Part shown: in pieces, positions 1 to 50,302 of the stretch
Layout: each line of letters opens with the position of its first letter
Numbering within the stretch: the stretch's first letter is position 1
Assembly: GCA_001567275.1 (NCBI GenBank)
Contig: LNBX01000043.1
Coordinates: 44,351-108,350, forward strand
Reading direction: 5' to 3'
Source of the DNA: Bacteroidetes bacterium OLB10
Lineage (GTDB): Bacteria; Bacteroidota; Bacteroidia; AKYH767-A; OLB10
DNA: 64,000 nt
Notes under the pieces: model-generated
What the model was told of the DNA's origin: nothing
Seen by the model: the letters and a program-made list of their open reading frames with translations, nothing else
Database searches by the model: none
Translations under genes and position numbers: made by a program

Positions 1-672
1 ATTTGCTTCAGAGTTTTTAGTGCTGAAAGCCAATCGTGCATTAATCAACATACTCTTTTTTCCTTCTGTATAAACAATTCCATCTTCAAGAACAATATGA
101 TTACTGTTGGCAGTTTCATTCAGTTGCTTAAAAAAAGGAGTTGTAATATTCAGTGGGTCATTCACTAAAAACTCTTTGGCAAACAATCCTGCCGGAGAAA
201 GCAGCCGCTGATAACTTTCGCTGACGGACTGTTTTATTTTTTCAGTTGTTATGCAGGAGTCAATATGACTATAATAACCAGAATCAATAAAAGCAGGAAA
301 AGCTGAATAATAATAATCGTAAACTTCTTGCTGGATATCAGGACGTGTGGCACGTATGTCTGTCAGATAATTTTTGCATGCAGAGTCGAGCAGAACTGCT
401 GCTTCATCAATAAGCTGTTGGTGAAAATCAGGGTCATTATTTCCACCGGTTTCAATCGAAAACAATACCTGATTCGAGATATTCTTTGTTTCGATTAAGC
501 TGTTAAATTGCTGAAATTGTTTCCCTTTGGGCAAAGCGGCAAAAATATCTTCAGTAATCCGGAGATTTCTGATTCCATTATAAGTGAAAAAAGCTATAAC
601 GGATAGCAAAAGAATCAAAAACAGAGGTTTTTTGACCAGAAACTGAACAAAACGTGTGATGCTGCTACTCAA
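1..672 (-). CDS. 5-prime part of a membrane protein, possibly an MMPL/RND-like predicted exporter (gene continues past the left edge)
   Basis: Absent from the ORF track because no stop lies in the window. My manual minus-strand translation is open from about 672 down to position 1 (LSSSITRFVQFLVKKPLFLILLLSVIAFFTYNGIRNLRITEDIFAALPKGKQF...). That gives a short N-terminus, one TM helix and then a large soluble loop. There is no in-frame ATG. TTG at 672-670 is the only plausible start, so the start is uncertain. Confidence 0.4.
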   Translation of the reverse strand, partial: MSSSITRFVQFLVKKPLFLILLLSVIAFFTYNGIRNLRITEDIFAALPKGKQFQQFNSLIETKNISNQVLFSIETGGNNDPDFHQQLIDEAAVLLDSACKNYLTDIRATRPDIQQEVYDYYYSAFPAFIDSGYYSHIDSCITTEKIKQSVSESYQRLLSPAGLFAKEFLVNDPLNITTPFFKQLNETANSNHIVLEDGIVYTEGKKSMLINARLAFSTKNSEAN

Positions 673-752
673 TCTGATTTGGGGTAATAAGTCTGCGAAT
701 TTAGGTGAATTTATTTAGTGCAAAAGGGTGGATTATTTATTTTTAAAATGCG

Positions 753-760
753 TATTTTTG
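753..760 (+). promoter_or_regulatory. Bacteroidota -7 promoter element (TAttTTTG) upstream of hppD
   Basis: TATTTTTG matches the TAnnTTTG consensus. It ends 26 bp upstream of the ATG at 786. Confidence 0.4.
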
Positions 761-785
761 TATCTTATTATTAATACAAATTATC

Positions 786-1880
786 ATGGCAGAAGATTTT
801 CTTCCTTTAAACGGTACAGACCACATTGAATTCTATGTGGGCAATGCCAAACAATCGGCATATTATTATCAGTCAGCCTGGGGTTATGAACTAATAGCAT
901 ACGCTGGCCCCGAAACGGGTGTTCGCGATCGTGCATCATACGTTTTGCAGCAAGGTAAAATTCGTTTTGTACTTAGCAGTGCAATGCATCCCGACAGTGA
1001 AATAACAAAGCACGTAGCACAGCATGGTGATGGTGTAAAAGTGCTTGCACTTTGGGTGGATGATGCTGAGAAATCATTTTACGAAACAATGAGCCGGGGA
1101 GCAAAGGCTCATACACAACCAACTACTTTATCAGACGAATTTGGAGAAGTGAAAATTTCAGCGATACATACTTATGGAGAAACCATCCATAAGTTTGTTG
1201 AGCGTAAAAATTACAAAGGTGCTTTTATGCCCGGTTTCAAAGCTGCCAAAAGTTCTATTCCCGTAAAACCAGTTGGCTTGCGACATGTAGATCATTGCGT
1301 GGGCAATGTAGAGTTGGGTCAGATGAATCAGTGGGTGAAATTTTACGAGGATGTAATGGGATTCAAACTTCTTATTACGTTTGATGATAAAGATATTTCA
1401 ACTGAATACTCTGCTTTGATGAGTAAGGTGGTGAGCAATGGAAACGGATATGTGAAGTTTCCGATTAATGAACCTGCCGATGGAAAACGCAAGTCACAAA
1501 TTGAAGAATATATTGAATTTTATCACGGTTCAGGAGTGCAACACGTAGCTATTGAAACGGCAGATATTATTTCTACAGTTCGGGAATTGCGCAGCCGTGG
1601 AGTTGAGTTTTTGCATGTGCCTGATACTTACTATGAGGACGTATGGAACAGAGTAGGGCATATCAATGAAGATACAAAAGCAATTAAAGATTTAAATATT
1701 TTGGTTGACCGTGATGATGAAGGTTACCTGCTTCAGTTGTTTTCAAAACCTGTGCAGGACAGACCAACTGTATTTTTTGAAATCATTCAGCGTGTTGGTG
1801 CCAAATCATTCGGCAAAGGAAACTTCAAAGCACTGTTTGAAGCTATAGAACGCGAACAGGCTTTGCGCGGAAATCTTTAA
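786..1880 (+). CDS. hppD: 4-hydroxyphenylpyruvate dioxygenase
   Basis: 364 aa with two vicinal-oxygen-chelate halves. Family-typical motifs are HIEFYVGNAKQ, HVDHCVGNVELG, GVQHVA, GYLLQLFS, FFEIIQR and GNFKALFEAIE. Confidence 0.9.
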   Translation: MAEDFLPLNGTDHIEFYVGNAKQSAYYYQSAWGYELIAYAGPETGVRDRASYVLQQGKIRFVLSSAMHPDSEITKHVAQHGDGVKVLALWVDDAEKSFYETMSRGAKAHTQPTTLSDEFGEVKISAIHTYGETIHKFVERKNYKGAFMPGFKAAKSSIPVKPVGLRHVDHCVGNVELGQMNQWVKFYEDVMGFKLLITFDDKDISTEYSALMSKVVSNGNGYVKFPINEPADGKRKSQIEEYIEFYHGSGVQHVAIETADIISTVRELRSRGVEFLHVPDTYYEDVWNRVGHINEDTKAIKDLNILVDRDDEGYLLQLFSKPVQDRPTVFFEIIQRVGAKSFGKGNFKALFEAIEREQALRGNL

Positions 1881-1900
1881 GAATAATTTATATTTTTCTG

Positions 1901-1933
1901 AATTGGCGGTTCTCGGTTTACAGGGCCGCCAAT
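1901..1933. terminator. Hairpin between convergent hppD and recR
   Basis: AATTGGCGG ... CCGCCAATT forms a 9-bp stem flanked by T-runs on both strands, in a 54-bp convergent intergenic gap. Confidence 0.55.
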
Positions 1934-1934
1934 T

Positions 1935-2555
1935 TTATTTTATGAGCACATTTTCATAAGGTACTCTGTTGAGAATAGAGCGACCTAAAGTAACTTCATC
2001 GGCATATTCCAGTTCTCCACCTATGGCTACACCTCTTGCCAGAATAGAAATTTTTACTCCCGAATCGCGAAGTTTTTTTGAAATATAAAATACGGTAGTA
2101 TCTCCTTCCATAGTGGCGCTGAGGGCCATTATTACTTCTGAAATTTTTCCGGAGTTTACTTTTTCAACCAATGAATCAATGTTCAGCTGCCCGGGGCCAA
2201 TACCATCCATTGGTGAGATAATTCCTCCAAGAACATGATATAGTCCGTTGAATTGCGAAGTATTTTCAACAGCCATCACATCTCTGATGTCCTGCACCAC
2301 ACAAATCTGCGAGTTGTCTCTTCGCGGATTGGCACAGATACTGCAAACTTCTGATTCAGAAATATTATGGCAACTTGTACAATAATTGATGTTGTTTCTC
2401 AACCTGATAATGGCATTGCCGAAACGATTTACATCGGCAGCATCCTGTTTGAGCAAATGCAATGCAAGCCTCAGTGCACCTCTGCGGCCAATACCCGGCA
2501 GGCGCGAAAGTTCATTTACAGCTTCTTCCAGTAAGCGGGAAGGATAATGTTCCAT
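1935..2555 (-). CDS. recR: Recombination protein RecR
   Basis: 206 aa. It has an HhH motif ([20 protein letters not shown]), a C4 zinc finger (CTSCHN...CSIC) and a Toprim-like C-terminal half. Confidence 0.95.
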
Positions 2556-29979: not shown

Positions 29980-29986
29980 ACCGTTT

Positions 29987-32537: not shown

Positions 32538-32567
32538 TCTAACAGACAAAATTGGGGCGAAAACTTA

Positions 32568-32575
32568 TATTTTTG
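32568..32575 (+). promoter_or_regulatory. -7 promoter element (TAttTTTG) upstream of the amidase gene
   Basis: TATTTTTG lies 44-56 bp upstream of the candidate starts at 32619 and 32631. Confidence 0.35.
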
Positions 32576-32580
32576 ACCCG

Positions 32581-32588
32581 CAAAGGTA
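32581..32588 (-). promoter_or_regulatory. -7 promoter element (TAccTTTG on the minus strand) upstream of the LptD-like gene
   Basis: Plus-strand CAAAGGTA lies 44 bp upstream of the ATG at 32537. It forms a divergent promoter pair with 32568-32575. Confidence 0.35.
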
Positions 32589-32618
32589 ATTGAACAGAAA
32601 CATACCACATTAACGAAT

Positions 32619-34016
32619 TTGCTGAAACAGATGTTGTTTTCTAAAAAGCTATCATGGGCAAGAGGATTTATTATTGTTTTAACAGGATTTTTCCTCTGTA
32701 CATCTTCTACTTTCGGTACCTATAAGCCTCCTTATCACATCAAAACCGTAGTTATTGACCCCGGACACGGAGGTCATGATTCAGGTTGTTTGGGTTCTTC
32801 TTCAAAAGAAAAACAGATAGCTCTTGAAATTGCGCTTAAACTTGGGGATTTAATTTCCAAGAAATATCCTGATGTAAATGTTATTTACACCCGAAAAACA
32901 GATGAGTTTATAGAATTACATGAACGTGCTGCCATTGCCAACCGCAACCATGCCGACCTTTTTATATGTATTCACTGTAACTCAGGTGCTCCGGCTGCAT
33001 TTGGTGCTGAAACCTATGTGATGGGATTACATAAAACAGAGGATAATCTGAGTGTTGCAAAGCGCGAAAATGCTTCAGTGTTGTATGAAAAAGATTACAA
33101 ACAAAAGTACGATGGCTTTGACCCGAATTCTCCTGAAGCCAACATTATTTTTTCATTATATCAGAACGCATACCTTACGCAAAGTCTCAAATTTGCATCA
33201 GCAGTGCAGCGACAGTTTGAAGAATATGCAGGCAGATTTAACCGCGGTGTGAAACAGGCCGGATTTCTGGTTCTCTACAAAACAGCAATGCCGAGTGTGT
33301 TGATTGAAACAGGCTTTCTTACCAATAAAACAGACGAAAAATATTTGTTATCGGAAAAAGGACAACTAGCTACTGCCAACAGTATTTTCAGAGCATTTAT
33401 GGCCTACAAACTCGATATGGAAATGCCCGGCTCTAAAGACAAAGAGTTGGCTTCTGCCGATTCTGACATGAAAAAGAATCAACCTGTTGTAAATCCTGAT
33501 TTGAAAGAGAATACTGAAACGCCAAAACCATCGCCTAAAAATAATGCAGATGCTGCTGCTGAAAAAACAAAAACAGATACGCCTGAGCAAAAGGAACCGG
33601 TAAAATCCACTGTTACGCCAATAGATAAAAAGAAAGATGATGTAAAACCTGCTCCGGAAAAAATAAATGACACAAAACCTGCACCACCTAAAACAAATGC
33701 AAACGCAACAACAACGGTGGAAGCGGGTGACAAGGAAGTAAAATATCCTGATTTGTTTTATACCGTTCAGGTGGCTGCAGCTCAGCCTGAATCCATAGAA
33801 AACGAACTGAAAAAATACTCAGCACTTGGCGATGTTCATACATTCAAAGCTGAGAATGGTATGATAAGAATATGTAATGGTATATATTTGAGCCATGCTA
33901 AAGCAACTGAAGCACAAAATGCAATCAGGAAAAAAGGATATTCTGATGCATTTGTTACCCCATATTATAAAGGTAAAAGAATCAGTGTTCAAGAAGCATT
34001 AAAAATTAAAAAATAA
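32619..34016 (+). CDS. N-acetylmuramoyl-L-alanine amidase (Amidase_3) with C-terminal SPOR domain
   Basis: 465 aa. The Amidase_3 motifs are VVIDPGHGGHDSG, IHCNS and ETGFLTN. A long Lys/Pro/Thr-rich linker leads to a SPOR-like end (YTVQVAAAQ ... KGYSDAFV). Confidence 0.85.
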   Translation: MLKQMLFSKKLSWARGFIIVLTGFFLCTSSTFGTYKPPYHIKTVVIDPGHGGHDSGCLGSSSKEKQIALEIALKLGDLISKKYPDVNVIYTRKTDEFIELHERAAIANRNHADLFICIHCNSGAPAAFGAETYVMGLHKTEDNLSVAKRENASVLYEKDYKQKYDGFDPNSPEANIIFSLYQNAYLTQSLKFASAVQRQFEEYAGRFNRGVKQAGFLVLYKTAMPSVLIETGFLTNKTDEKYLLSEKGQLATANSIFRAFMAYKLDMEMPGSKDKELASADSDMKKNQPVVNPDLKENTETPKPSPKNNADAAAEKTKTDTPEQKEPVKSTVTPIDKKKDDVKPAPEKINDTKPAPPKTNANATTTVEAGDKEVKYPDLFYTVQVAAAQPESIENELKKYSALGDVHTFKAENGMIRICNGIYLSHAKATEAQNAIRKKGYSDAFVTPYYKGKRISVQEALKIKK

Positions 34017-34022
34017 TTCCGT

Positions 34023-34952
34023 GTGAAAATATCGAATGAAGTTAAAGTAGGCATTGCAGTAGTCATAACCATAGCAGGATTAATATGGGGACTTAACTAC
34101 CTCAAGGGTACAGACCTTTTTGCTACTACCAATAAGTATTTTGTGGTTTATAACAATGTAAATGGTATCGTCAAATCCAATCCTGTTATAATGAACGGAT
34201 ATAAAATTGGTCAGGTGGACAAAATAGAATATACCAAAGATAAGAGCGGAAGGTTGGTGGTTACACTAAAAATTGATGATAATATTTTTGTTCCCAAATC
34301 AAGCAATGCAGTTATTGTTTCGAGTGATTTATTAGGTTCCAAAGCCATTGAACTTGAATTTGGAAATGATGGAACTCCGGCAAAAAACGGAGATACGCTG
34401 GTGGGTGATGTTGAATCAGGACTTACAGAGCAAATCAAACCATTAAAAAATAAAGCTGAAGGGCTTGTTACTTCGCTTGATTCTCTTTCTTTTGCTTTAA
34501 GCCAACTGCTGAATGACAATTCGCGCAACAGTCTCAATAAAACATTTTCTAATCTTGAGAAAATTTCTTCCGGGTTGGATCAGTTAATTAATTCAGAAAA
34601 TAGTCGTTTGCGTTCATTTATTACCAATGCTGATGGAGTGGCAGGAAATCTGAATAAAAACAGCAACAACATCAACGCTATTTTAAGTAATGTAAACTCT
34701 TTGAGCGACTCGCTCAGCAGACTGCAACTTAATGCCACGATTGAAAGGCTAAATAAAACCGTTACAGAATTAAGTAATGTATTGGCTAAAATTGAAAACG
34801 GGCAAGGAAGTCTGGGTAAATTAGTTAATAACGACAGCCTGTATGTCAACCTGAATAATGCTTCTGCCAATCTGGATAAATTGCTGATTGATTTAAAAGC
34901 AAATCCGGGCCGTTATGTGCATGTATCTGTTTTTGGAAGAAAGGATAAGTAA
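34023..34952 (+). CDS. MlaD/MCE family protein
   Basis: 309 aa with an N-terminal TM anchor (VKVGIAVVITIAGLIW), an MCE domain and a helical C-terminus ending in GRYVHVSVFG. GTG start. Confidence 0.8.
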   Translation: MKISNEVKVGIAVVITIAGLIWGLNYLKGTDLFATTNKYFVVYNNVNGIVKSNPVIMNGYKIGQVDKIEYTKDKSGRLVVTLKIDDNIFVPKSSNAVIVSSDLLGSKAIELEFGNDGTPAKNGDTLVGDVESGLTEQIKPLKNKAEGLVTSLDSLSFALSQLLNDNSRNSLNKTFSNLEKISSGLDQLINSENSRLRSFITNADGVAGNLNKNSNNINAILSNVNSLSDSLSRLQLNATIERLNKTVTELSNVLAKIENGQGSLGKLVNNDSLYVNLNNASANLDKLLIDLKANPGRYVHVSVFGRKDK

Positions 34953-35076
34953 CAGAACTTTTTCGGTATAAGTTTGTTAAAAGTAACTCATATAGTTACG
35001 ACTAAATCATGTTTTTCTTAATTGCCCGCAGATAAATTATGATTATTTTCGTATCCTAAGCTTTAAATTAATCAGG

Positions 35077-36210
35077 ATGAATACCCGTGTAATTTTATTT
35101 TCTGCAATTATATGTGCAGGTATGAGTGCTTGCGGTGGAAGTGAAAATGATACTTCCGGCAATTCAGCAGAAACCATTGCAGCAACAGATGATAATGAAT
35201 CATCTGAGAATGCAAATGCTAAACAAAATTCAAAAGGAAATTACTGGCAAAAGATGGTGATGCTTGAAGTGCGCGACAATAATGGAACCATTCAGTATTG
35301 GCAACCACTTCCCGCCAACTGGAAATTCATTGCACATTCTTCAGACGGTGTTTCCATAAAAGGACCTGATGGAATTAAAGTAACCGATTTTCCACTACAT
35401 TCTTTTATGGTGGACTATACAGGAATGGGTGTATCTAATGGAATGCAAATGAGAGCTATGCCACCAATTGATGATTTGATTCAACAGGATGTTATTCCCT
35501 CAGCATCACAAAGAGGACTACAATATATCAGACATTATGAGTTGCCTGATGTTTCAAGAATGAATCAGTGGTACGCTGATCAACTTTACTCAAGCGCGCC
35601 AACAACGAAATTTAATAAAGCTTACGGCATTGACTGGAAAAACGCTGATGGCAGAGAGTCTTTTTCTATATTACATGTGTCGTCTTTCAAAGGTCAATAT
35701 AGTGAAATGTGGAATTACAGAGCTTCACTTCTGGAAGCTGACCCTTCTGTTTTTACTCTTGCAAAAAAGCAATACATATTTTCATTAGCCAATATGCGAT
35801 ATAATCTGGAACCCATCATAGCATATAATCAGGCCGAAGCACAACGTATAGGTCAAAGTTGGGATGCATTTAATCGGAGAATGGCTGCAAATCAGGCAGC
35901 ATTTGAAGCAAGTCAAAGAGCGCATATCAATAAAACCAACGCCATCAACGATGCGATTATGAGTAACTGGAGATCGTCTAATGAGGCAAGTGATAAAAAC
36001 CAGGAACAGTTTATAGATAACATTTATGAAAACCAGAATGTGGTGAATGAGGAAACAGGGCAGAAATACAAAGTGCAGCAAGGATATAACCAGTACTGGA
36101 TGAACAACGATGGCGAGTATATCGGAACACCTTCCAACACTTACAATCCAAATCTTGATGAAAACCTTAATGAACAGAACTGGCAGAAATTGAATCAAAT
36201 TGACAGGTAA
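35077..36210 (+). CDS. Hypothetical lipoprotein with Asn/Gln-rich C-terminus
   Basis: 377 aa with a lipobox (AGMSAC). I recognise no family. Confidence 0.5.
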   Translation: MNTRVILFSAIICAGMSACGGSENDTSGNSAETIAATDDNESSENANAKQNSKGNYWQKMVMLEVRDNNGTIQYWQPLPANWKFIAHSSDGVSIKGPDGIKVTDFPLHSFMVDYTGMGVSNGMQMRAMPPIDDLIQQDVIPSASQRGLQYIRHYELPDVSRMNQWYADQLYSSAPTTKFNKAYGIDWKNADGRESFSILHVSSFKGQYSEMWNYRASLLEADPSVFTLAKKQYIFSLANMRYNLEPIIAYNQAEAQRIGQSWDAFNRRMAANQAAFEASQRAHINKTNAINDAIMSNWRSSNEASDKNQEQFIDNIYENQNVVNEETGQKYKVQQGYNQYWMNNDGEYIGTPSNTYNPNLDENLNEQNWQKLNQIDR

Positions 36211-37247
36211 TGAAATTCGGAATAGGATTATTCGGAGATTCAGGATATGACTCTGAAAACAAAAAATATCGCAGTCCTGATTTGCGACTGAAAGAAATTG
36301 TAGAAGAAGTAAAATTAGCTGACGAAATTGGAATAGATGTGTTTGCTATGGGCGAACATCATCGCAATGATTACGTAGTTTCTTCCCCCGAAACTATGTT
36401 GGCGGCATTGACAACGGTAACTAAGAATATTACTCTTAGCAGCGGAGTAAATGTTTTAAGTTCGGCTGATCCGGTGAAATTATATCAGGATTACGCCATG
36501 ATAGATTTGCTATCCGGTGAGCGAGCCGAAATCATGGCGGGCAGAGGTAGTTTTATTGAGTCTTTTCCTTTGTTCGGCCAGGACTTAAAAGATTACAATG
36601 TATTGTTTGATGAAAAATTAAAGTTACTTCTTCAACTGAACAGAGAGGAAGTCATCAACTGGAAAGGGAAATTTCGTCCTGCATTGATAAATCAAACTGT
36701 TTATCCACGACCCAAAAGAGCAATTCCTGTATGGATTGCAGTTGGCGGCACTCCTGAGTCTGTAGAAAGAGCTGCTCAACTTGGATTACCTATCATGTTT
36801 GCAATTATAGGTGGTGATATCAGACAGTTTAAACCATTGTTCGATTTTTATAAGGAAGAATACATTGGTGCAGGACATGATATTAAAACAATGGAAGTTG
36901 GCGTACATTCTCACACCTACATTGCAAATTCGAAAGCAACCGTTATCCAGGACTACTTTTCTGTTTATGCACGTCAGATGGATAAACTCGCTGCAGAAAG
37001 AAACTGGAGAGTTGGAAAATTTACTCAATCAAGGTTTGAAGAGGGTATGAGTAAATATGGTGCACTGTTTATGGGTGATGCTGATGAGGTTGCAGAAAAA
37101 ATTATCAATACCATTGAATTGTTCAGCCTGACACGTTTCGTTGCGCATCTGGATGTGGGTGGACCCACACATATCGAACTGATGCGCACCATTGAGTTGT
37201 TCGGAACTAAAGTGATTCCAAAGATTAAGAAACATTTTGACAAATAA
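36210..37247 (+). CDS. LLM-class (luciferase-like) flavin-dependent oxidoreductase
   Basis: 345 aa with TIM-barrel luciferase-like features (FAMGEHH, GRGSF). Its start overlaps the previous stop in a TAATG arrangement. Confidence 0.85.
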   Translation: MKFGIGLFGDSGYDSENKKYRSPDLRLKEIVEEVKLADEIGIDVFAMGEHHRNDYVVSSPETMLAALTTVTKNITLSSGVNVLSSADPVKLYQDYAMIDLLSGERAEIMAGRGSFIESFPLFGQDLKDYNVLFDEKLKLLLQLNREEVINWKGKFRPALINQTVYPRPKRAIPVWIAVGGTPESVERAAQLGLPIMFAIIGGDIRQFKPLFDFYKEEYIGAGHDIKTMEVGVHSHTYIANSKATVIQDYFSVYARQMDKLAAERNWRVGKFTQSRFEEGMSKYGALFMGDADEVAEKIINTIELFSLTRFVAHLDVGGPTHIELMRTIELFGTKVIPKIKKHFDK

Positions 37248-37262
37248 TAAAAATAATGCATT

Positions 37263-37457
37263 GTGAATACTGCACAAAGTCCTGAAGATATTCCGCAGAT
37301 GTTTGTAGAAAACTGGAACAAACGAAGACCTGATTTGATGGCAGAGGTGTTTGAAGAAGATGCCGACTTCATCAATGTGGTTGGACTATGGTGGAACAAC
37401 AGAGCGGATATTTTGAAAGCGCATGACTATGGATTGGAATGGCTTAACGAAGTTTAA
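37263..37457 (+). pseudogene. N-terminal fragment of an SgcJ/EcaC-type (SnoaL-like, NTF2-fold) protein
   Basis: It encodes only about 58 family-like residues (IPQMFVENWNKRRPDLMAEVFEEDADFINVVGLWWNNRADILKAHDYGL). Six unrelated codons and a stop follow. The rest of the fold is at 41793-42086. Confidence 0.7.
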
Positions 37458-37863
37458 AAAAGAAAGGATAGAAAGCACAACTGTTGCCACAAAAAAATGC
37501 GAACAATAAGATAAATTATTTACCGACAAGAAGTTCACATTTTTTTTGCACTTGCAGAATGTTTGTTACTTGCATAATTGTTTGTTTACCTATCAAAGCC
37601 CTTCTTTCTTAAATTTTGTTTAAGCTTCATTTTACCTGCATGTGCTGCTGTTCAGTCGCAGTAATGTCTGCCCGAATTTGCTCACTGGTTATTTCTTGAT
37701 TGTTGGAGCGTGGAACTGTGTGGTTGCGAAGTTTTTATTTTTTTTAGCGCGGCTTTAAAATGTGTATGGTTTTGTGTTTGGGCATTTGAATAAAATGGTT
37801 GTTGTTATTCAGTTTATATTATAATGAATTGTTAAGTCTTTAGCGGAGACGTTAAAATGCTCA

Positions 37864-38538
37864 TCAGTTAAGCGTTACATTTATTAGTGTGGTATCGCAT
37901 ACGTTAGCTATATGTGTGTTCATTACTTCTGGGTTGTTATTTAATTTGTATCCAAAGTCGAGAATATTTTGAATATAACTTAAATTTATTAAGCTGAAAT
38001 CTTGCATTTCATACACTATGCCGCTGTTGAAAGGACCAGGCAATTATAGCGGTTCAGCTAAATTTCTAAAGTCAGTAATTGATAATGTGTCGTTGGTTGA
38101 ATATGTATTTAGCGCAGTTAAGATAAATTTAATATTTGTGCGTGGAGTTACAAAAACATTCAAATCATAAATATTTTCATGCTGAGGAATATAATCTAAC
38201 AAAACTTTATACCCTTGCCCTGCCGGTATGCTGATTTTTTCTTCCAATCCGCCTAATTCTTTAAATTCAAACTTAAAATAACCATTATTATCGGTTGTAG
38301 TTTCAGCAAGAATACCTCCATGCAAAGGTCCTCCCAAAGTGCTGGAATATGTTTGAAACAAATCCACTTTTTGGTTTGCCACAGGCTGCATGCTGCAATC
38401 TAAGTATAGGTTTCCTGTAATGGTGTATGTAGGGCCATCCCCAGGACGGTTAAAGTCTTTACGACATGAGGTAAAGCAGGTAATTAGCATAATCGACAAG
38501 GAAATCTTTAATTGCTGCAAATAATTTATTTTTTTCAT
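37864..38538 (-). pseudogene. Lipoprotein with a carboxypeptidase-regulatory-like (transthyretin-fold) domain, interrupted by an in-frame TAA
   Basis: This is a paralogue of 38657-39331, with near-identical N-terminal halves (..TSCRKD..GDGPTYTITG.LYLDCSMQP..NQKVDLFQTYSSTLGG). A TAA at 38044-38046 sits where the paralogue has Lys. The same frame stays open for 59 more codons that still align (LPGPFNSGIVY ... VCDTTLINV versus IAGPFTNSIAY ... ICDTTDVVI). Confidence 0.65.
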
Positions 38539-38591
38539 TGTACAATGAATTAAAAGCAGGCTTGTATTTAGCAAGGCTGATTTAGTTAAAC

Positions 38592-38645
38592 GTATTTATT
38601 GATGATTAATTTATGAGATGCAGATTCGCCTTTATCGCTTAACTT
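38592..38645 (-). repeat. 54-bp relic copy of the 3-prime end of the T9SS hydrolase gene
   Basis: TTTATTGATGATTAATTTATGAGATGCaGATTCGCCtTTATCGCTTAAC matches 39389-39437 with two mismatches. It marks a tandem duplication whose unit is the gene end, the intergenic region and the lipoprotein gene. Confidence 0.8.
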
Positions 38646-38656
38646 AACACTAGCAT

Positions 38657-39331
38657 TTATTGTATAGGTATAACTACATCAGTTGTATCACATATTTTAA
38701 ATTGAAAGCTAACAAATTTCCAAGTAGAGTTATTAATAGCATAAGCCAACTCCTCACTGCTACCAGAAAATGTATTATTAATAATTCCAAAATTATTTGC
38801 TACATAAGCTATGCTATTTGTAAACGGGCCTGCAATCTTTAGTTTCTGCGACAAATTTCTAAAATCTGTTAAATATAAAGTATCACTACTTGTATAACTA
38901 TTTGTAGCATTTAAGGAAACTTTTATATGAGAAGTTGGGTTCGCTATAACATCTATATCGTAAAAACTTTGGTTCTGAGGAATGTAATCCATTAATACTT
39001 TATACCCTTGCCCTGTCGGAATTCTGATTTTTTCTTCAAGTCCATCCAAGTCTTTAAACTCAAACTTAAAATAACCATCAGAATCGGTTATGGTTTCAGC
39101 AAGAATACCTCCGTTTAAATTACCACCAAGTGTGCTTGAGTAAGTTTGAAATAAATCAACTTTTTGATTTGACATCGGCTGCATACTGCAATCTAAGTAA
39201 AGTTTTCCTGTAATTGTGTATGTTGGACCATCCCCCGGCTGGTCAATATCTTTGCGACATGAAGTAAAGAATGTAATTAACATTATCGTCAAGGAAATTT
39301 TTAATTGATGGAATATATTAATATTTTTCAT
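38657..39331 (-). CDS. Lipoprotein with a carboxypeptidase-regulatory-like (transthyretin-fold) domain
   Basis: 224 aa with a lipobox (FFTSC). The TITGKLYLD ... TDSDGYFKFEF pattern is typical of CarboxypepD_reg-like domains. This is the intact copy of the duplicated pair. Confidence 0.6.
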   Translation of the reverse strand: MKNINIFHQLKISLTIMLITFFTSCRKDIDQPGDGPTYTITGKLYLDCSMQPMSNQKVDLFQTYSSTLGGNLNGGILAETITDSDGYFKFEFKDLDGLEEKIRIPTGQGYKVLMDYIPQNQSFYDIDVIANPTSHIKVSLNATNSYTSSDTLYLTDFRNLSQKLKIAGPFTNSIAYVANNFGIINNTFSGSSEELAYAINNSTWKFVSFQFKICDTTDVVIPIQ

Positions 39332-39348
39332 TGTATAATGAATTAAAA

Positions 39349-39373
39349 GCAGTCCTGCAATTTACAGGACTGC
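39349..39373 (-). terminator. Hairpin terminator downstream of the T9SS hydrolase gene
   Basis: GCAGTCCTG caattta CAGGACTGC is a 9-bp stem followed by a T-run on the minus strand. The duplicated copy near 38553-38577 has a mismatched stem. Confidence 0.6.
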
Positions 39374-39385
39374 ATTAGTTAAATT

Positions 39386-41467
39386 TTATTTATTGATGAT
39401 TAATTTATGAGATGCTGATTCGCCATTATCGCTTAACAGTTTTATAAAATATAATCCTGATGTTAGATTGATGCGTGTTAATTCAACAACAGCAGTTGAG
39501 TTAACACTTGAATCATTAACTTTAATAACTTGGGTATTGATTAATTCACCGGTTGAATTATACAAGTTAAATTTAACCGGAGCGTTCGATTTAAAAGAAA
39601 AATACAATACAAGTTGATACCCGTTATTAGGATTTGGAAATACACTTAGAAACGTTTTTGAGTCACTGGTTTTTGTTTTATTCTTCTGCGCATGACGCTC
39701 CAAAAAATTTTCGCAGCATACATCAACTGGTTGGTCAATATGATTATAATTACCTGTAAAAGGAGGGTTATAAACAAAACCAATTCCGGTTGGTGAATGA
39801 GTCGCGTTAAAATAAAAAGTGGCATAACCAGAATTATCAATTATGTATGGGTCTTCTTTAGAGTAAATTCCATGAAACATAGGTGGACCAGAAAAAGGCT
39901 GGCTCGGATACTCATATCTTGGATTTCGCTCATTTACGTACAAATCATATTCAGGTTGATATGAAGCTTGCCAGTGTAATGTTACATTTTCAAGGTACAA
40001 GTTTTCGTCTCCAATTTCAGCATTTAATAAACTTCGCTCAACGTTATCATTTACCCCCATGCAGGAATAATAGGTACAATTATGAGGACCAGCATTTGGT
40101 TGTGTAGTTAGATTATAAGCAAAATCATTTCTGAAACCAACATGACTCCGGTTAGGATAACTTCCGATATAGGGAACAATCATCATATCAACTGGCGTAT
40201 TGGAAACTTTTACGTTAATATTATCATTGTTCTCAATGTCATATTCTAAAGGAATTGAGCCAAGTACACCATAATCTAAAGCTGATTGAACAGGCACAAA
40301 ACCAAAATGCAAACCATCGGAACACAAAGAATAATCAAAATTTGCAGATAAAAAACCATTGAACCCTAAATGAGAATCAAAATCAACACAACCGTTACCA
40401 TCTACCGTATGATTGTAATGGAAAAAATTAAGAAGCCAATAGTTGTTGGATAAATTAAACCCATTAGAAGAAGGAGTTGAGCTGATAAAAAATGGGTCTC
40501 CAGTAAAGCCGCCTTTATTTACGCAATACGGTTTAAGATTCGCATATTCATCTTTAAATAAAAGTGAGTTGTACCCAATTTTAATTTTTATACCAAACCA
40601 TTTGAGTTTAATTTTAATCCCAAACCAACCTGCTTGCGCATGAAAAATATGTCCATTGCCATTAGGATTTGTTTTACACTCTAAATCACCGCCAAAAATT
40701 GGTACTTTAAGCCATAACACCCTGGCATAAAGATCTGCACTAAAATCTAGCAAGCGGTCCCCTGGTGTTCTATCGGCACCGGTATTAAAATTTCTCTGCA
40801 TTTCACCCGACATTGAGCCTTGGGACATTGCAATTACTTTAGCAAACTGAGGATAATTACCAAGTGAATTTAACTGGTCAAAAAAGAAATATTTATCAGA
40901 TTTTGAATCATAATTGTAATACCCAGGCGAGCCTGATTTAGTGTCAATATGATAAATCAACATTTGCTGTGCTGCCTGCCCATCAAGAAATAAGTTGAAT
41001 GAACTTGCTAACAAGCGCTTATCAAAACTGATATACCTGCTAACTACATCCATAGCTGTTTTATAAGCATATTGCATAGACATCGGAATATTTGCACCTT
41101 GATGTGGAGTATCGAGTGTTATGAATAATCTTGTATTGTGCATTTTTTCGGTACGGCACCATAACGAAGGCATATTAAAAATATTTGGTTGCAATGCAAG
41201 ATAGGGAAGATTATTAATGTCAAATTGGTCAACAAAAAATGGTGAGGTATTTTGTTGCAAGTAATATTCCGATTCCATATAAGTAAGAGCAAATCGGGCT
41301 ACCAAACCTCCCATACTTTCGCCCATTACTACAAACTGTTGTTCATCAACATCTTGGGTAATGCATTTTAAATGTTCAAGCAGGTTAACAAAATACAATG
41401 CATTAAAACGAATGTCAATACGACTATTAGCGTAGTCCACAATAATGAAACTATACCCCTGATTTTT
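39386..41467 (-). pseudogene. 5-prime-truncated lipase-like alpha/beta hydrolase with T9SS C-terminal sorting domain
   Basis: ORF 39386-41440 has the nucleophile elbow GESMGG but no signal peptide and no N-terminal part of the fold. Coding-like sequence (KNQGYSFIIVDY) continues upstream of the annotated GTG start to an in-frame TAG at about 41468. The C-terminus is T9SS-like (FLSVFPNPNNGYQLVLYF ... GLYFIKLL). Confidence 0.6.
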
Positions 41468-41789
41468 TAACTATTTCAAAAGTATATCAAAAAAACATTA
41501 CAAAAACGTAAATTTTAAGATTAATTTATTAACAGTTGACTTATGCCATACGTGCGATGGAAAATTGCACTCTATTGCAAACTTTGGTTGTGCGATAGGT
41601 TTTTCGAGCGGCTTGCAATTGTGTGCAATGTGCGGCAGGAGTAAATTAAAAAATAAAAAATGCGGAGAGGAAAAAATAAAACTTCTTGCGAGGGCTTGTT
41701 GGGTTTCGCAGTCAGTTTGGGCGGGCTTTGGTAACCCTTTTTCAGTTTATTAAAGGCACACAGTTTCAAGTTAGCAGACAGTTTTAGCA

Positions 41790-42086
41790 TTGCAGGTAAA
41801 AGTGATATTTCAGAACTCAACTTTGCAAATCATTCGTATGAAAACAAAAATGCTTTCTGAAAATTCGGCAGTAGTTCACTCTAAACTAAGGCTGACCGGA
41901 CAAACTACACATCACGGACAGCATGCCGGAGACAGGTTAACGATATTAACCTTTGTAGTTCGCAAAAATGAGGACGGAATATGGTGGGCGGTATCAGCAC
42001 AAAATACAGATATTGTGGGTGATGCAGAAACGTATCTTCGCACCGCAAACGGAGATTTGAAACCCGTAGATTATCGCAACAGTTAA
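41790..42086 (+). pseudogene. C-terminal fragment of the same SgcJ/EcaC-type NTF2-fold protein
   Basis: VIFQNSTLQIIRMKTKMLSENSAVVHSKLRLTGQT ... LTILTFVVRKNEDGIWWAVSAQNTDIV matches the beta-sheet half of the family. There is an in-frame stop just upstream, so it has no native start of its own. Confidence 0.7.
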
Positions 42087-42124
42087 GAATAGTATTTAAC
42101 CGATTATTTTTTATTTGAAAGAAA

Positions 42125-42682
42125 ATGCAAGCAGTTGTATTTAATGGCTCTATGGAAACAGGGGCACACTCAGTTGGAAATGTAATTTCAGAATATATTA
42201 AGTCAGACTTAAAAACACGGAATATTAAAACAGAAATTTTTGAAGCAGGAAAGTCTGAAATCCCTTTGCTCCATCCCGAAAAAATGCGTAATGTGCCGGC
42301 TGAGGTGAAGAAGATGTGCGAATTAATGCAGAAAACGGAGGTGCATTTTTGGTTGTCACCTTTATATCACGGATCAATTCCGGGTATTATGAAAAATTGT
42401 CTGGATTGGTTGGAGATAACTTCAAAATCATCCACACCATACCTTACTGATAAAATTGTCTGTTTGGTATGCTGGGCAGATGGTTCACATGCACTTAATG
42501 GCATTCAAACAATGACTACCATTGCGCATTCGTTGCGAGCCTGGACATTGCCTTATAATGTAGCAGTGAGTACTCCATTTCTTTACGAATCGAACAGCAG
42601 GGATGAAATATCAACTTATTATAAGCAAAAGATAAATCGCCTTATTGAGTTGGCCGTTTCCAGAAAAATTGAAATGAGATAA
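42125..42682 (+). CDS. NADPH-dependent FMN reductase family protein
   Basis: 185 aa flavodoxin-like protein (VVFNGS ... SPLYHGSIPGIMKNCLDWL). Confidence 0.75.
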   Translation: MQAVVFNGSMETGAHSVGNVISEYIKSDLKTRNIKTEIFEAGKSEIPLLHPEKMRNVPAEVKKMCELMQKTEVHFWLSPLYHGSIPGIMKNCLDWLEITSKSSTPYLTDKIVCLVCWADGSHALNGIQTMTTIAHSLRAWTLPYNVAVSTPFLYESNSRDEISTYYKQKINRLIELAVSRKIEMR

Positions 42683-42714
42683 CAGAGGTTATTATTAGGG
42701 GAATAGTAATTTAT

Positions 42715-43218
42715 TTATTTCCTGACAGCATAAATTAATTCGTCCTCTGCAACGCCATTCTTAAAAATCACTTTATCAAGTCTGGCTTCAAGTTTAAATC
42801 CTGCTTTTTCAAGAACTCTTTGCGAGGCAAGATTGCTTCCGAAAGGACGTGCATAAATTCTGTTTACAGGAAACTGACTGAAACCATATTCCACCATTTC
42901 TTTAATATGATTTGTAATGATACCCTTGCCCCAGTATTTTTCAGAAAGCCAGTAGCCTAATTCCGCATTTCGCTCCATGATGTCGGTTTGCGGATGTATT
43001 CCTATGGCACCTATTGCTTCACCATTATAATCAATTGCAAATACCTGAGCAGGTATTAACTTTGAAATTCGGAAAATAAATTCTTTAGCGTGACGATCAG
43101 TATAAGGGTAGGGGAACTGATTCGTCATGAATTTTGCTATTGACGGATTGTTTGCATGGAGTTGCAAACTTTGCCAGTCTTCTTCCTTAAATTCCCGCAA
43201 CGTGGTTTTTAAAACCAT
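42715..43218 (-). CDS. GNAT family N-acetyltransferase (RimJ/RimL-like)
   Basis: 167 aa with an acetyl-CoA binding region (YWLSEKYWGKGIITN) and NLASQRVLEKAGF. Its start shares a TAATG overlap with the stop of the upstream 1340-aa gene. Confidence 0.85.
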   Translation of the reverse strand: MVLKTTLREFKEEDWQSLQLHANNPSIAKFMTNQFPYPYTDRHAKEFIFRISKLIPAQVFAIDYNGEAIGAIGIHPQTDIMERNAELGYWLSEKYWGKGIITNHIKEMVEYGFSQFPVNRIYARPFGSNLASQRVLEKAGFKLEARLDKVIFKNGVAEDELIYAVRK

Positions 43219-46200
43219 TATTTTATCACCACTAATTGCTTTACAAATTTACCTTGATCAGTTATCAGATGAACATGATAAACACCTTTGGCCAAATGGG
43301 CTATATTGGTTTTTAGCTGATGATAACCTGATTCAAGATTTTCCTCACGCTCCATTACCAGTTGCCCGATATCATTAATAACCTCTAACCGAACTGAAGA
43401 ACTTTCAGGAAGTATAATTTCACTGATAAAATCATCATTGGCCGGATTAGGATAAAGATTAAACAACGGTACCACTGAACTGTTCTTGTCGCAGGAAACT
43501 GCTATCATTGGAAGTACTTTGTAACTTCCGTCATAATCATATTGAATGAGTCTGAAGAAGTTGTGGATATTTTCAGCTTTGGCAACAAACGTATATCGCG
43601 TTTGCGAAGTAGTTGTACCCTTTCCGTTTATTTTTCCGATTGTCGTAAAGTTATCACCATCTGTTGACTGTTGCACGTCAAAATAACTATTATTAACTTC
43701 AGAAGCAGTAACCCAGTTAAGTGTAACTTCCGACTTATTACAAATAGCTGAGAAGGATAACAACTCAACAGGCAGCGGATTGGATTCAGGAGCTATGTTG
43801 AAGTTTTCAGTAGTTGAAAAATCATTCCAGTTAGTTCTGAGTATTGAACCTAATACAGGTGATGCTGCACCGCTGGGAATACCTCCTATATCTTCCCACC
43901 AAAGCGGAGGTGAGTTATGTCCCCACTGTGTCAACTTCAGCAATGCCCAGGCAGTTATGGCATCCTGAGCATCGTCAGCGTAAAGTGAAAACTCAGCAAA
44001 CGAAGTTCCTGAAACATGATTTATTTTTTGATACCATCCGGGATTTATCGGACCTAACAACGGATCACGAAGCGCACGGTTAAATCCATCGGTATTTGGG
44101 TCATTGTTTACCATTCGTACACCAAATGTATTGGCTGAGGCCGAGAGTGGTCGAATAGATACAGGTCTGAAACGTGCAGGAGGTACTGATGAACCTACAG
44201 GGAAGAGATAATTGGAAACAGATGCCGTATTGCGCCATAGCCTACCGGTACCGGTGCTGCTTACAAATCCTTGTACCGGTGTAGAGTTCAGTGCACCTGT
44301 TCGTGTAATTGCACCCGGAGAAGTGTTGGTTACATACATCACATTTCCCTGTGTTGCAAGTTCGCGGTTATTCAGATTTAGTGTTCCCTCAACTCGTGCA
44401 TCAACATTTTGTGTTTTAATTCCGGTGCCTGTAAGTGTAAGATTGTAAAAATAAGTAGGTGTTGTTCCTCTGATGGTTTGATTGGCGCCAAAAAGTTCTA
44501 CCTCTCCGGGGCTTGAATTGATGAATGCATTTCCTGTGGAATTGTTTGTCCAGTCACCCTGAATTCTTACCTGACCACGGTTGTCCCATGTTCCAATATT
44601 ACTGAGGTTATCCTGGTTTATCACACCACCTTCAACATGCATAACTGCACCTGCCTGTAAATAAATCAATGAGCCGTCATTTACAATTAAACCTGTTCCG
44701 GGTGAAGGACATGTCACAACGTTGATATAATTTGTCTGTGTTGAACTGTTACTGCCAAATGCATTGCTTGCTGTAAGAGATACATTGTAAGTTCCGGCTG
44801 TAGCATAAGTAATTACAGGATTCTGCACTGCTGATGCAGCCGGTGTTCCTCCTGTAAAAGTCCACGACCATGATGAAGGTACATTGGTGGACTGATCAAC
44901 GAAAGTTACCGATTGCCCTGCACATACAGTGGTAGGAAATCCTGAAAAAGATACAACAGGAGCAGAACATAAATTCACAGTAATGTATCCCGACATGGTA
45001 ACAGTGTTTGAGCCTCCACTGTTTGTAGCGGTCAAGGTTACTGCGTAAGTGCCGGGAGTGTTATATGTAATAGTTGGATTTTGTGCAACAGATGACAACG
45101 GTGTTCCTCCTGTAAAAGTCCACGACCATGAAGTAGGGCTGTTGGTAGATAAATCTGTAAATGCAACAGTACCTCCTGCACAAAGAGTTGTAGGTGTTGC
45201 AGAAAATGCAGCCACAGGTGCAGGCGGACAAACATTGACAGTAATGTAATTGTTTTTTGTAATAGTATTGTTGCCATACGCATTGGTTGCAGTAAGAGTA
45301 ACATTATAAACACCTCCGGTGGAATAAGTAATTAATGGATTTTGCGCAGTAGATGTACCGGGTGTTCCTCCTGGAAAAGTCCAGCTCCAACTTGTGGGTG
45401 AGTCACTGCTCATATCCACAAACTGAACGCTGCTTCCTTCGCAAATTGTAAGTGGCGAAGCAGTAAAATCTGCAGTAGGAGCAGGGCAGTTGTTTACAGT
45501 TACATAATTTGTTTTGGTAATACTGTTTGAACCGAATGCATTACTCACAGTTAACATAACAGAATAAGATCCGGGAGCTCCATAAAAAATTGCAGGTGGT
45601 GTTGCCCCTGAAAAAGTATTGGGTACTCCCCCTGGGAAAGACCATGTCCAGGAAGTTGGAGTATTCAGAGAAGCATCCGTAAAAGTTACATTAAGCGTGT
45701 TGCAACCTGTCAGTGGAGTTCCTGTGAAATCGGCTATGGGTGCATTTATGGCGCAGTTAGAGGCATTAAGAGCCACCATTGCTGATGGGCCACATGCATT
45801 TGTGATGATGCTTCGGCTCATAATATCATTACCACCTGCTGTTTCACTTGCAGGTGTAAGCGTTCTTCTGTCAGTATTTGGGCCAATGGCATAATTCATT
45901 ACTGTAACCGGTAGTATTGTATGTCCTAACTGGTGACTGTGACCCAACTCATGCAAGCACACCGATTCAAAATCGAACTGACCTCCACCGGTAGCACCGG
46001 GGCCATAATTCCAGTTGATACCACCAGTACCGTTCGTACGGAATTTTAAATCATTTTCATTAAGATACCACACACCACTTGCACAGGCACTGTAATAACT
46101 GTATGAAATCCCTAATACGCCTGATGGCAGTGCACATGAACCATCAAAAGTTACAATATTATTTCCATCCAATGCCTGACAGGTAGTAGCTGTTGTTCCT

Positions 46201-47240: not shown

Positions 47241-47271
47241 ATCAATGTTTTTTGGTTAATGGCAATGCAGA

Positions 47272-48907: not shown

Positions 48908-49032
48908 TTTATATATTTTCATTTTGTAATTTTTAATTTAATAAAGTTTTATATTTTATTTGTTGAAGCTAAATCAGCATTTTTTAAGAAAATACTTTTA
49001 AAAAGATATGTTTTGGAAATAAAATTTATATT

Positions 49033-50141
49033 CTATTTTGCTGATTTTTCCAGTTGCTCAATTCTGACCTTTAACGCTTCTATCTGAGTCTGTTGTTCCT
49101 TAATGGCTTCTACCAGCACCGGAATTACATCAGCATAGGAAACTGCTTTTACACTATATGAGCCACTTCGACTTGCTTTTTCTGTTGATACCGGATCTAT
49201 GTCGTATGGTATTGCTGTATTTCTAACAGCAGAAGGAAGTACTTTTTCCAATTCCTGAGCAATGAAACCTGTTTGAGTAGTGGAACTTAAATTCAAAGGT
49301 TTGTATTCTTCTGTGCGATAGTTATAAAAAACTCCACGCATGTTTTGAACCATTTGTAATGCATTAGGAATGGTCTTGATATTTGTTTTTAATTTTTCAT
49401 CTGAAACATTTAACCAGTTAGTAATACCTCCAGCCCAACCACCGCCATAAACAGCCCAACCAATTGCCGTTGGTTGATTACCGCCTACAAATGCACCGTA
49501 AACACCAATTCCTGCAGTGCTGTTGGAATGACCTCTAACACCTTCGCCACCTGCAAGCAGAGGAGCAGTATTTGTATTGTTCAAAGCAATGCCAATTACA
49601 GCAGAAGCATTCCATCCTGTGCTGTTAAAGTTTGTTGCACCCATAAGCACACGGTTATTATTGCTTGCGCTTGAATTTTGAAATCTGGCAGGAGCATCAC
49701 CGGTCAGTAAATTATCCCATTTAAATTGCCAGTCATTGATTAAGGAGGGAGGAATGGCATGCATCCATGTGGTTACGGGATTGGTAGTCCACAGACCAAT
49801 ACTACCTGTATTTTTTATGGTCATTCGTTCGGAGTTGTTAGTTCTGAATCTAAGATCAATATTATCAGTTGTTCCCAGAAAATTAAGAGTACTGCTCAAA
49901 CCTGCATTACCTTTTGTAAGCCATACATCAGAAGGCGTACCGGGCGTGTGGTTAAATCTCCAAAGTTATTTACATAAACATTTCTGGTGCCTACTCCCGA
50001 TAATCCGTCAATACGAATTGTCTGACCGGAACCTGCAACATGTAATTTTTGCAATGGAACAGATGTACCTATTCCTACATTCTGCGCACGAACAGAAAAA
50101 CAAATTGAAAGTAAAAAGAACAGAGGTAGATACTTTTTCAT
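49033..50141 (-). pseudogene. Secreted tail-fibre-like protein with C-terminal S74 intramolecular chaperone domain, frameshifted as assembled
   Basis: It has a signal peptide plus the NVGIGTSVPLQKLHV module. The C-terminus SDEKLKTNIKTIPNALQMVQNMRGVFYNY ... VPVLVEAIKEQQTQIEALKVRIEQLEK matches the phage tailspike/endosialidase autochaperone (peptidase S74) pattern. ORFs 49896-50246 and 49033-49899 join if one base is added near 49940-49944. The span is 1109 nt, which is 370 codons minus 1. Confidence 0.65.
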
Positions 50142-50294: not shown

Positions 50295-50302
50295 TAATTT
50301 TG
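50295..50302 (+). promoter_or_regulatory. -7 promoter element (TAatTTTG) upstream of the PD40 gene
   Basis: TAATTTTG lies 15 bp upstream of the ATG at 50317. Confidence 0.4.

Follow-up and report, generated by a model that had tools for sequence, protein, structure and literature searches.

A decayed, enzyme-less block that splits an SgcJ/EcaC gene in an uncultured Bacteroidota species is probably an integron-like cassette integrated at a secondary site

The locus considered here lies in a stretch of 64,000 nucleotides (nt) from Bacteroidetes bacterium OLB10 (assembly GCA_001567275.1, contig LNBX01000043.1, positions 44,351 to 108,350 of the forward strand), hereafter the window, whose own coordinates are used throughout. 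On its plus strand, an LLM-class flavin monooxygenase gene (36210..37247; PF00296 169 bits, TIGR03858 437.8 bits, the latter under its cutoff of 462) is followed by the 5′ fragment of an SgcJ/EcaC gene (37263..37439; 59 native codons, from a GTG start to E59), a large block whose cargo lies entirely on the minus strand, the 3′ fragment of the same gene (41802..42086, plus strand; 94 native codons and the stop) and an NADPH-dependent FMN reductase gene (42125..42682, plus strand; PF03358 70.4 bits). A first-pass annotation, made from the letters alone, had read this arrangement as a large block splitting a single SgcJ/EcaC gene within a monooxygenase/FMN reductase unit and had left the arrival of the block unexplained. 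Profile searches and empty-site contigs bear out that reading; comparison with other sequences additionally lets us recognise the anatomy of a mobile element in the block and propose how it arrived. Most probably, a circular integron-like cassette integrated here at a secondary site and then decayed.

The open reading frame (ORF) at 37263-37457 encodes 58 SgcJ residues (MNTAQ...AHDYGL) and then EWLNEV and a stop, of which E59 is native and the rest is derived from the insert, and the ORF at 41790-42086 encodes the C-terminal SgcJ part (VIFQNS...DYRNS). Against the NCBIfam SgcJ/EcaC profile TIGR02246, the N fragment alone scores 31.4 bits over profile positions 8-54 and the C fragment alone goes undetected; the protein joined in silico reaches 45.9 bits over positions 8-124 of 128 (cutoff 33.95) and is thereby a member of the family. 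Since the joined protein covers 8-124 and the N fragment only 8-54, the fragments are complementary halves of one gene, as had been supposed, with the C half adding positions 55-124. An intact orthologue of 153 amino acids (aa; P0001, on DAIQHX010000002.1, locus L015) is 97% identical to the joined protein and reads ...AHDYGL-E-VIFQNS... across the insertion point; the 5′ fragment equals its residues 1-59 and the 3′ fragment its residues 60-153 except for G138D. The three-gene unit is intact in L015 and in L001, the LLM-SgcJ pair recurs in L003, L005, L006 and L007, and the gene order in L015 runs LLM, SgcJ, FMN reductase, acetyltransferase and a 1340-aa PKD protein.

Aligned by blastn, positions 1-10177 of L015 correspond to 27261-37439 of the window and positions 10176-20462 to 41800-52085, at 99.2-99.3% identity. 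This makes the insert 4362 bp long (37440..41801, cargo on the minus strand), within ±2 nt owing to a 2-nt AA overlap (TT in cargo sense), and moves the ends of the block from 37437 and 41792, as first given, to 37440 and 41801. The in-frame join of the earlier restoration holds; its 155 codons do not, as the intact gene has 153 and the QVK placed at the head of the C-terminal part contains two insert-derived codons. Likewise, the ATTG that had been pointed out at both junctions is present in the letters, and was rightly not called a target-site duplication, but it lies away from the true junction. An empty site exists in relatives whose flanks are 99% identical: the block is missing from L015 and from a second contig, L016 (JGI 3300009868), 98.8-99.0% identical to the window flanks. 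The empty allele is also represented by assembly GCA_036791285.1. Outgroups at 87% identity have an intact SgcJ gene, and the gene is uninterrupted in L001, L003, L005 and L007 and in the proteins P0002-P0069. The GC content is 0.34 in the block and 0.38-0.39 in the flanks.

Domain-profile and tRNA searches confirm that the block is without integrase, transposase or tRNA. Its cargo is itself decayed, in the form of a 1058-bp deletion, a nonsense mutation and a frameshift. A 684-codon ORF (39386..41440, minus strand) encodes a 5′-truncated secreted alpha/beta-hydrolase with a type IX secretion system (T9SS) type A sorting domain (TIGR04183, 33.9 bits at residues 600-683, cutoff 23) and a DUF676/PGAP1-like match (PF05057, 21.0 bits, cutoff 20.3) that begins at profile position 75; its homologues have about 1000-1050 aa, and the window copy misses the N-terminal third. 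Its partner, an intact 224-aa lipoprotein-like gene (38657..39331, minus strand), has only weak transthyretin-like Pfam matches. A second lipoprotein-like copy (37864..38574, minus strand; ORFs 38044-38574 and 37864-38043) is a frameshifted pseudogene that belongs to an internal tandem duplication of 793 bp (direct repeat D1, 38010-38643 versus 38803-39437), from which 51 nt left over from the 3′ terminus of the T9SS gene also derive (38593..38643, minus strand; direct repeat D3, 96% identical to 39387-39437).

A longer form of the block, 5425 bp in L017, begins and ends as the window form does, and its extra sequence supplies only the part of the hydrolase that the window lacks. By blastn and junction comparison with it, the window carries a deletion scar at 41465..41472, where 1058 bp including the start of the gene were lost between 8-bp direct repeats TTTTAACT; the window form derives from the longer, L017-type form. 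The undeleted hydrolase gene of L017 bears an in-frame stop codon. The deleted form is the dominant one, with its 684-aa product on about 146 contigs versus about 10 for the 825-aa product. Outside this locus, the hydrolase-lipoprotein pair recurs in ordinary chromosomal contexts in L023 (77% aa identity), L024 and L147 (71%), and in L023 and L024 a homologous gene of 222-228 aa follows the hydrolase. The flanks of the L023 and L147 copies have no homology to the block ends and no copy of the leader element M described below.

Two side observations concern this cargo. Identity between the lipoprotein copies is only 71-82%, compared with 96% between the 51-nt hydrolase remnant and its source, and gene conversion is one possibility for such uneven identity within a duplication. 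In addition, the 224-aa lipoprotein gene is intact on every contig seen while the hydrolase decays, which might, speculatively, be likened to the pattern of toxin loss with retention of immunity.

The filled site is common. Junctions identical to those of the window occur in L017-L022; 16 contigs encode the identical 224-aa cargo protein, and in all six of the places shown the block occupies the same position (GCA_015075335.1, on a 2.1-Mb contig, GCA_026129665.1, GCA_023957715.1, GCA_035448325.1, JGI 3300015612 and JGI 3300015605). Products of 82 aa from the C fragment are present on about 165 contigs of the protein collection, and intact 153-aa products on about 115. In the host, an uncultured Bacteroidota species, the insertion is a common polymorphism; for the most part, contigs of the species and of its closest relatives stem from metagenomes of activated sludge and anaerobic digesters. 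Divergence of the window from L017 is 0.34% in the block and 0.8-0.9% in the flanks, and the lower value for the block fits a single insertion event that then spread within the species. Among intact alleles, SgcJ residue 59 (window 37437-37439) is commonly K (AAA), which is also the outgroup state, and rarely E (GAA), the latter in P0001 and P0252, on one contig each (compared with P0239 and P0245). The left junction of the filled allele carries GAA, and the target of the insertion must have been this E59 allele.

The right end of the block, TTGCAGGTAA, is a cassette start that is conserved across over 100 metagenome contigs of Bacteroidota. The terminus reads ATTGCAGGTAA at the point where similarity within the family stops, and ...GCATTGCAGGTAAAA^GTG at the junction (here and below, a caret marks a cut or boundary). 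The cassette start or outer box itself, ATTGCAGGTAAAA (TTTTACCTGCAAT in cargo sense; 41789..41801, minus strand), agrees with the terminus seen most often in the family, CTTGCAGGTAAC, is located at +224..238 relative to the M motif (+167..230 in the family) and coincides exactly with the insertion junction. The left end (37440..37640) is an attC-like imperfect palindrome, one outer box of which is now at the other end of the block: it starts with TGGCTTAACGAAGTTTAAAAAAGAAAGG, which pairs with CCTTCTTTCTTAAATTTTGTTTAAGC at 37598-37625 (inner arms 37442-37467 and 37598-37625), and continues into the outer box CATTTTACCTGCA at 37628-37640. This CATTTTACCTGCA is the complement of the right terminus of the block plus the first two bases of the block.

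Joining 41775-41801 to 37440-37650 yields a hairpin of about 225 nt on either strand, with DNA folding energies of -34.4 and -36.2 kcal/mol (z = -3.7 and -3.9; none of 200 shuffles as stable) and a perfect 13-bp stem, TGCAGGTAAAATG/CATTTTACCTGCA, that crosses the junction of the joined ends. By our own estimate, the chance of a 13-bp match in a fixed register is about 1e-7 to 1e-8. The palindrome of the window is significant only after its ends have been joined. Because the joined ends rebuild the hairpin, we read the integrated block as a circularly permuted cassette whose own site was opened at its core or, put differently, as exactly one unit of an array, cut out at matching points of two consecutive sites. 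The junction of the circle is predicted to read ...TTGCAGGTAAAATGGCTTAACG..., the reconstructed site GCAGGTAAAATGGCTTAAC and the target site in SgcJ TATCACTTCCAATCC.

Other searches of the block were negative. Terminal inverted or direct repeats are absent from it, the only repeats being of low complexity or internal duplications, and a candidate long inverted repeat between the conserved segment at the left and the region right of M shrank to a 16-nt A/T-rich box. RNA folding of the non-coding region at the right end gave no signal on either strand (z about 0 to 0.5), scans for sigma-70-type promoters and terminators gave no excess, no tRNA or tmRNA target was seen, and viral contigs searched with both block ends returned no match. 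The block does not qualify as an insertion sequence (IS) or transposon, having no terminal inverted repeats, an overlap of 2 nt only and no transposase domains.

The lead to a wider family was a distant blastn comparison of the block with plasmids, in which a single 74-nt match linked a Persicobacter replicon to non-coding DNA upstream of the hydrolase; beyond it, the phage and plasmid collections held nothing for the whole block. A 24-nt degenerate core, ATTGCACTCTNTTGCAAANTTTGG, scanned over metagenome contigs, matches at least 119 of them. The underlying element, M, is a near-invariant non-coding sequence of about 80-90 nt (GGCAAAAATTGCACTCTTTTGCAAATTTTGG...GCGATTTGCAAATGTGTGCAATGTGCG). Its left edge and the start codon of a leftward operon are separated by 25-40 nt, and more than 100 such operons, varying from locus to locus, are found on Bacteroidota metagenome contigs (L026-L146). 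To the right of M, as oriented in the window, similarity between loci stops about 170-230 nt away at a conserved terminus, for which 97 non-redundant loci give the variants CTTGCAGGTAAC (22 loci), CTTGCATACAAC (19), CTTGTTGCCAAC (9) and others. The window holds a sole copy of this conserved leader (41558..41636, minus strand), upstream of the hydrolase in the undeleted form and matched by the family profile in nhmmer with 47.2 bits (E = 3.4e-13). With M upstream of its first cargo gene and the conserved terminus CTTGNNNNTAAC, the block of the window is a member of the M-led family.

A hairpin, CTGTCCCGAAGGGCAG, for which compensatory variants exist, and an A/T-rich box often follow M; Rfam has no family in the block nor at M in related loci. 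Possible roles for the element are those of a promoter or leader, of an operator or of an accessory site for a recombinase. It is present in only two plasmid records (the 1.57-Mb Persicobacter replicon and a 46-kb Flammeovirga plasmid) and in one viral contig. No protein common to all M-bearing loci, such as a linked recombinase, was found within ±7 kb. Ten out of 10 hand-picked first-operon proteins match PADLOC defence families, namely Vsr, type II and type I methyltransferases, ThsA/SIR2, HEC-06, PDC-S06, ZorA, QueC, HerA and DruF, and other cargo ORFs of the family are, from the look of their sequences, presumably TetR-type regulator-like and MMPL-type transporter-like. The literature yielded no paper with the M sequence and no integron or Bacteroidota paper that appears to describe an M-led family, which cannot prove it undescribed.

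A weaker direct copy of M, M′ (19-43 bits), occurs in 39 loci, at the opposite end of the cargo and 3-10 kb distant (among others in L028, L031, L034, L056, L065, L070, L075, L088, L100, L119 and L125). It sits in a conserved trailer of about 170 nt that links the cargo's 3′ end to the attC-like site, with the A/T-rich box of the trailer pointing back into the cargo; the window cassette has no M′. In the Persicobacter locus (L026; Persicobacter sp. JZB09, CP012852.1, 993050-1001120), M lies upstream of an 814-aa ORF on the unannotated 1.57-Mb replicon, and a 206-aa ORF about 0.7 kb from M has an N-terminus that we take to resemble an IS30-type helix-turn-helix.

Integron attC sites are recognised by RYYYAAC...GTTRRRY core boxes and by inner arms conserved in structure and not in sequence, and it is their bottom strand that folds. 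At many loci of the family, the terminus abuts an imperfect palindrome of about 116 nt, ...AAC^GGTTGGCGGTATGAAACGTTGGGG ... CCCCAATGTTTTATACCGCTT^GTTRRRY. Twenty-three non-redundant palindromes can be aligned, with AAC and GTT invariant; RNAalifold predicts 21 stem pairs, 16 of which show compensatory changes; the strand that carries the G·T pairs is the bottom one with respect to the cargo. A covariance model built from the attC-like palindromes detects (E <= 0.001) 132 sites in the metagenome loci, co-oriented within each locus and up to five in number, with four each in L105 and L101 and five each in L126, L116 and L070; contigs often end inside such a site. Loci of the host species gave no sites under the model. 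These arrays are confined to the related loci; the cassette of the window stands alone.

In most family loci, the available sequence shows an attC array and no recombinase. Xer/IntI-like tyrosine recombinases are nevertheless encoded directly beside the first cassette in L104 and L067 (+408..1961 and +310..1929 from the motif) and nearby in L133 and L097. Those of L104 and L067 have 517-539 aa, with an N-terminal extension of about 240 aa that contains three ..RW...CW.IP.. repeats and has no Pfam match. Among 8000 candidates scored in a homologue search 7983 matched, giving at least 7983 homologues, some of them in cultured genomes such as that of Parabacteroides sp. FAFU027, and their source names include XerD, tyrosine-type recombinase/integrase and site-specific tyrosine recombinase/integron integrase. 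Against NF040815 the recombinases of the related loci score 198-212 bits, with a cutoff of 220. The related loci have the architecture of integrons, but their enzyme falls outside IntI.

Integron recombination partners share a TT dinucleotide, the core being cut at G^TT. The 2-nt junction overlap in the window is likewise TT in cargo sense. Integron integrases such as IntI1 are known to insert cassettes at secondary sites, GWTMW or GNT (PMC4618277). We propose the following course of events. In cargo sense, the cassette would have consisted of the start TTTTACCTGCAAT, a leader of a few hundred nt including M, the cargo (the T9SS-secreted alpha/beta-hydrolase, the lipoprotein-like gene and its duplicated second copy) and an attC-like folded site. 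It would have entered as a circle, and a tyrosine recombinase acting in trans would have joined the attC-like core to a non-att chromosomal site, presumably with each partner cut on the 5′ side of a TT, the circle at GCCA^TTTTACCTGC and the target at TCAC^TTCCAATCC. Both junctions are reproduced if the circle is cut at A^TTTTACC and the target at C^TTCC, and the canonical position is within the 2-nt ambiguity. Such recombination would open the palindrome, sending one outer box to the right end of the block and the rest to the left end. A single event of this kind in the species would have inactivated SgcJ and parted the monooxygenase gene from the reductase gene, and the allele may then have persisted and spread, by descent or homologous recombination, as its cargo decayed.

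Several observations weigh against this proposal. Neither the 64-kb window nor the 20-kb flanks of conspecific contigs hold a recombinase gene. The target C^TTCC fits the GWTMW consensus poorly (PMC4618277), and an overlap of 2 nt alone is without significance. The outer boxes in the window, AGGTAAAA/TTTTACCT, are of the type AAAA/TTTT and not ...AAC/GTT..., and the covariance model, built on 23 sites (R1, the 116-nt class), has no match at 37440-37640, its best match in the window (E = 1) lying elsewhere; the site of the window is divided between the two ends and exceeds the modelled class by about 100 nt, and the site in L144, whose leader aligns with that of the window, has 201 nt. As for the enzymes of the related loci, the integron integrase profile TIGR02249 gives 208 bits for L104, 202 for L067 and 168 for L133, short of the cutoff of 265, and they are without the IntI-specific insertion: L104 and IntI1 are 30% identical, with a gap over the part of IntI1 in which the IntI-specific domain is located. 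Finally, the closest cargo homologues (L023 and L147) stand outside any cassette context, and no cargo homologue between 77% and about 99% identity was found; for both reasons the donor cassette is unsampled. Because the window has no recombinase, the related enzymes have no IntI domain and the attC model of the family misses the site of the window, we call the cassette integron-like and not a proven integron cassette.

Other origins have to be weighed against such a cassette. Capture of random foreign DNA by illegitimate recombination, through microhomology or end-joining of a double-strand break and without any site-specific recombinase, would account for a junction homology of only 2 nt, for a block without terminal inverted repeats, longer target duplication or mobility gene, for its GC content below that of the host and for the failure of the attC model in the window. 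Against it stands the geometry of a split palindrome: the two breaks occupy equivalent positions in the core of a palindromic recombination site, one end is the start conserved among cassettes of the family, the joined ends rebuild a hairpin whose junction stem has the very low chance probability estimated above, and no target bases were lost. We now regard random capture as unlikely. That the block goes back to a larger transposon, IS composite or integrative element, shortened by internal deletion and deprived of the enzyme that brought it, is highly improbable. The block has indeed lost 1058 bp relative to L017, and its tandem duplication is an internal rearrangement, both in favour of such a history; the longer L017 form, however, has the same ends and only hydrolase sequence in addition, there is no terminal inverted repeat, remnant of a transposase or integrase ORF or tRNA target, and the ends are accounted for by cassette architecture.

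It is more improbable again that the block is ancestral and was precisely lost from the empty strains, or that, in a variant of this view, the rare intact GAA (E59) allele is a revertant produced by recombinase-mediated excision. A site-specific system could in principle excise precisely, and the GAA of the filled left junction is shared only with the rare intact alleles P0001 and P0252. Distant relatives are all uninterrupted, though, which makes the empty state ancestral, and a single A-to-G change is the simpler origin of the E allele. That the block is an assembly chimera can be dismissed almost entirely. Compared with L018 (GCA_026129665.1) over 20.7 kb, the window shows zero substitutions and five single-base indels in homopolymer length, at 32390, 37540, 37732, 47247 and 48198, so that some sequencing errors are present in it; the same junctions, on the other hand, recur in at least six independent assemblies of different samples, among them the 2.1-Mb contig, and the 82-aa C-fragment proteins are recorded on about 165 contigs. 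This settles, independently of raw reads, the doubt about assembly that the first-pass annotation had raised.

A few observations on the surroundings stand apart from these questions. At least two of the five homopolymer differences coincide with apparently broken genes of the window: an LptD-like ORF has 798 aa in the window and 849 aa in L018, and a gene of about 544 aa is split at 47272-48922. Breaks of this kind are probably sequencing artefacts and not decay. SgcJ itself has been damaged more than once. The empty-site contig L016 (10001-10444) has a lesion of its own, an 8-bp tandem duplication (TCCGCAGA) and a 20-bp deletion, and in L002 (11035-11303) an SgcJ match is undetectable in the 268 bp that separate the LLM gene from the FMN reductase gene; from these independent losses, SgcJ is evidently dispensable in the lineage, which suggests relaxed selection on it. 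A D/G polymorphism at SgcJ residue 138, present in filled and intact alleles alike, suggests recombination between haplotypes near the insertion.

An integrated integron-like cassette at this locus turns a disruption without explanation into a testable event, in which an enzyme-less cassette knocked out a gene and split a three-gene flavin-enzyme unit, and would mean that an integron-like system can act as an insertional mutagen at non-att sites. Beyond the locus, the block points to a large, little-described family of cassettes in Bacteroidota, devoted mostly to anti-phage defence. Integrons are regarded as rare or absent in this phylum, and the related loci suggest a large reservoir of defence systems there, unusual in its recombinase without IntI domain, its multi-kilobase cassettes and its strongly conserved leader. 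We tentatively suggest that Bacteroidota may possess a widespread integron-like system, largely missed by surveys, made up of M-led multi-gene defence cassettes with a promoter-bearing leader, attC-like separators and Xer-type recombinases that lack the IntI domain and have a repeat-containing N-terminal extension; the window would then preserve a cassette that had left an array for an ordinary gene. Confirmation would widen the integron paradigm, provide in M and the cassette start a marker for mining defence systems and raise the question of the role of M.

Among known systems, Xer recombinases move enzyme-less cargo in pdif modules and in integrative mobile elements exploiting Xer (IMEX), at duplex dif-like sites of about 28 bp. 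Such modules share enzyme-less cargo and Xer-type recombinases with the M-led family, which differs from them in its covarying hairpin sites of about 120-220 nt with AAC/GTT cores. The sedentary chromosomal integrons of Vibrio resemble the family in their co-oriented cassette arrays, structured attC sites and defence-rich cargo (bioRxiv 10.1101/2024.07.02.601686). The family, in contrast, resides in Bacteroidota, listed in the same work among the clades previously found without integrons, and its cassettes are multi-gene units of 0.5-10 kb, each with a near-invariant M leader, whereas Vibrio cassettes are mostly promoterless and expressed from the Pc promoter. Clusters of attC sites lacking integron-integrases (CALINs), as defined with IntegronFinder (PMC9024848), are close to most family loci in being attC arrays without a recombinase, and the cassette of the window is likewise solo and far from an integrase; for Bacteroidetes, that survey reported In0 elements only, plus one complete integron in Salinibacter (PMC9024848). 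The comparison with cassettes inserted by IntI at secondary sites bears most directly on the window. Here the recombinases of the family are Xer-like, without the IntI-specific insertion and with an N-terminal extension of about 240 aa, the block is a unit of 4.4-5.4 kb with three genes and its own conserved leader, its boxes are AAAA/TTTT instead of AAC/GTT, and its target is C^TTCC instead of GWTMW. What the block has in common with such cassettes is the absence of an enzyme of its own, a mobile unit that is independent of a promoter, a site that, with the ends of the block joined, folds as an imperfect palindrome, a probable integration at the core beside TT with partners that share 2-3 nt, a target that lost no bases, ends without inverted terminal repeats and a cassette left stranded outside an array (PMC4618277).

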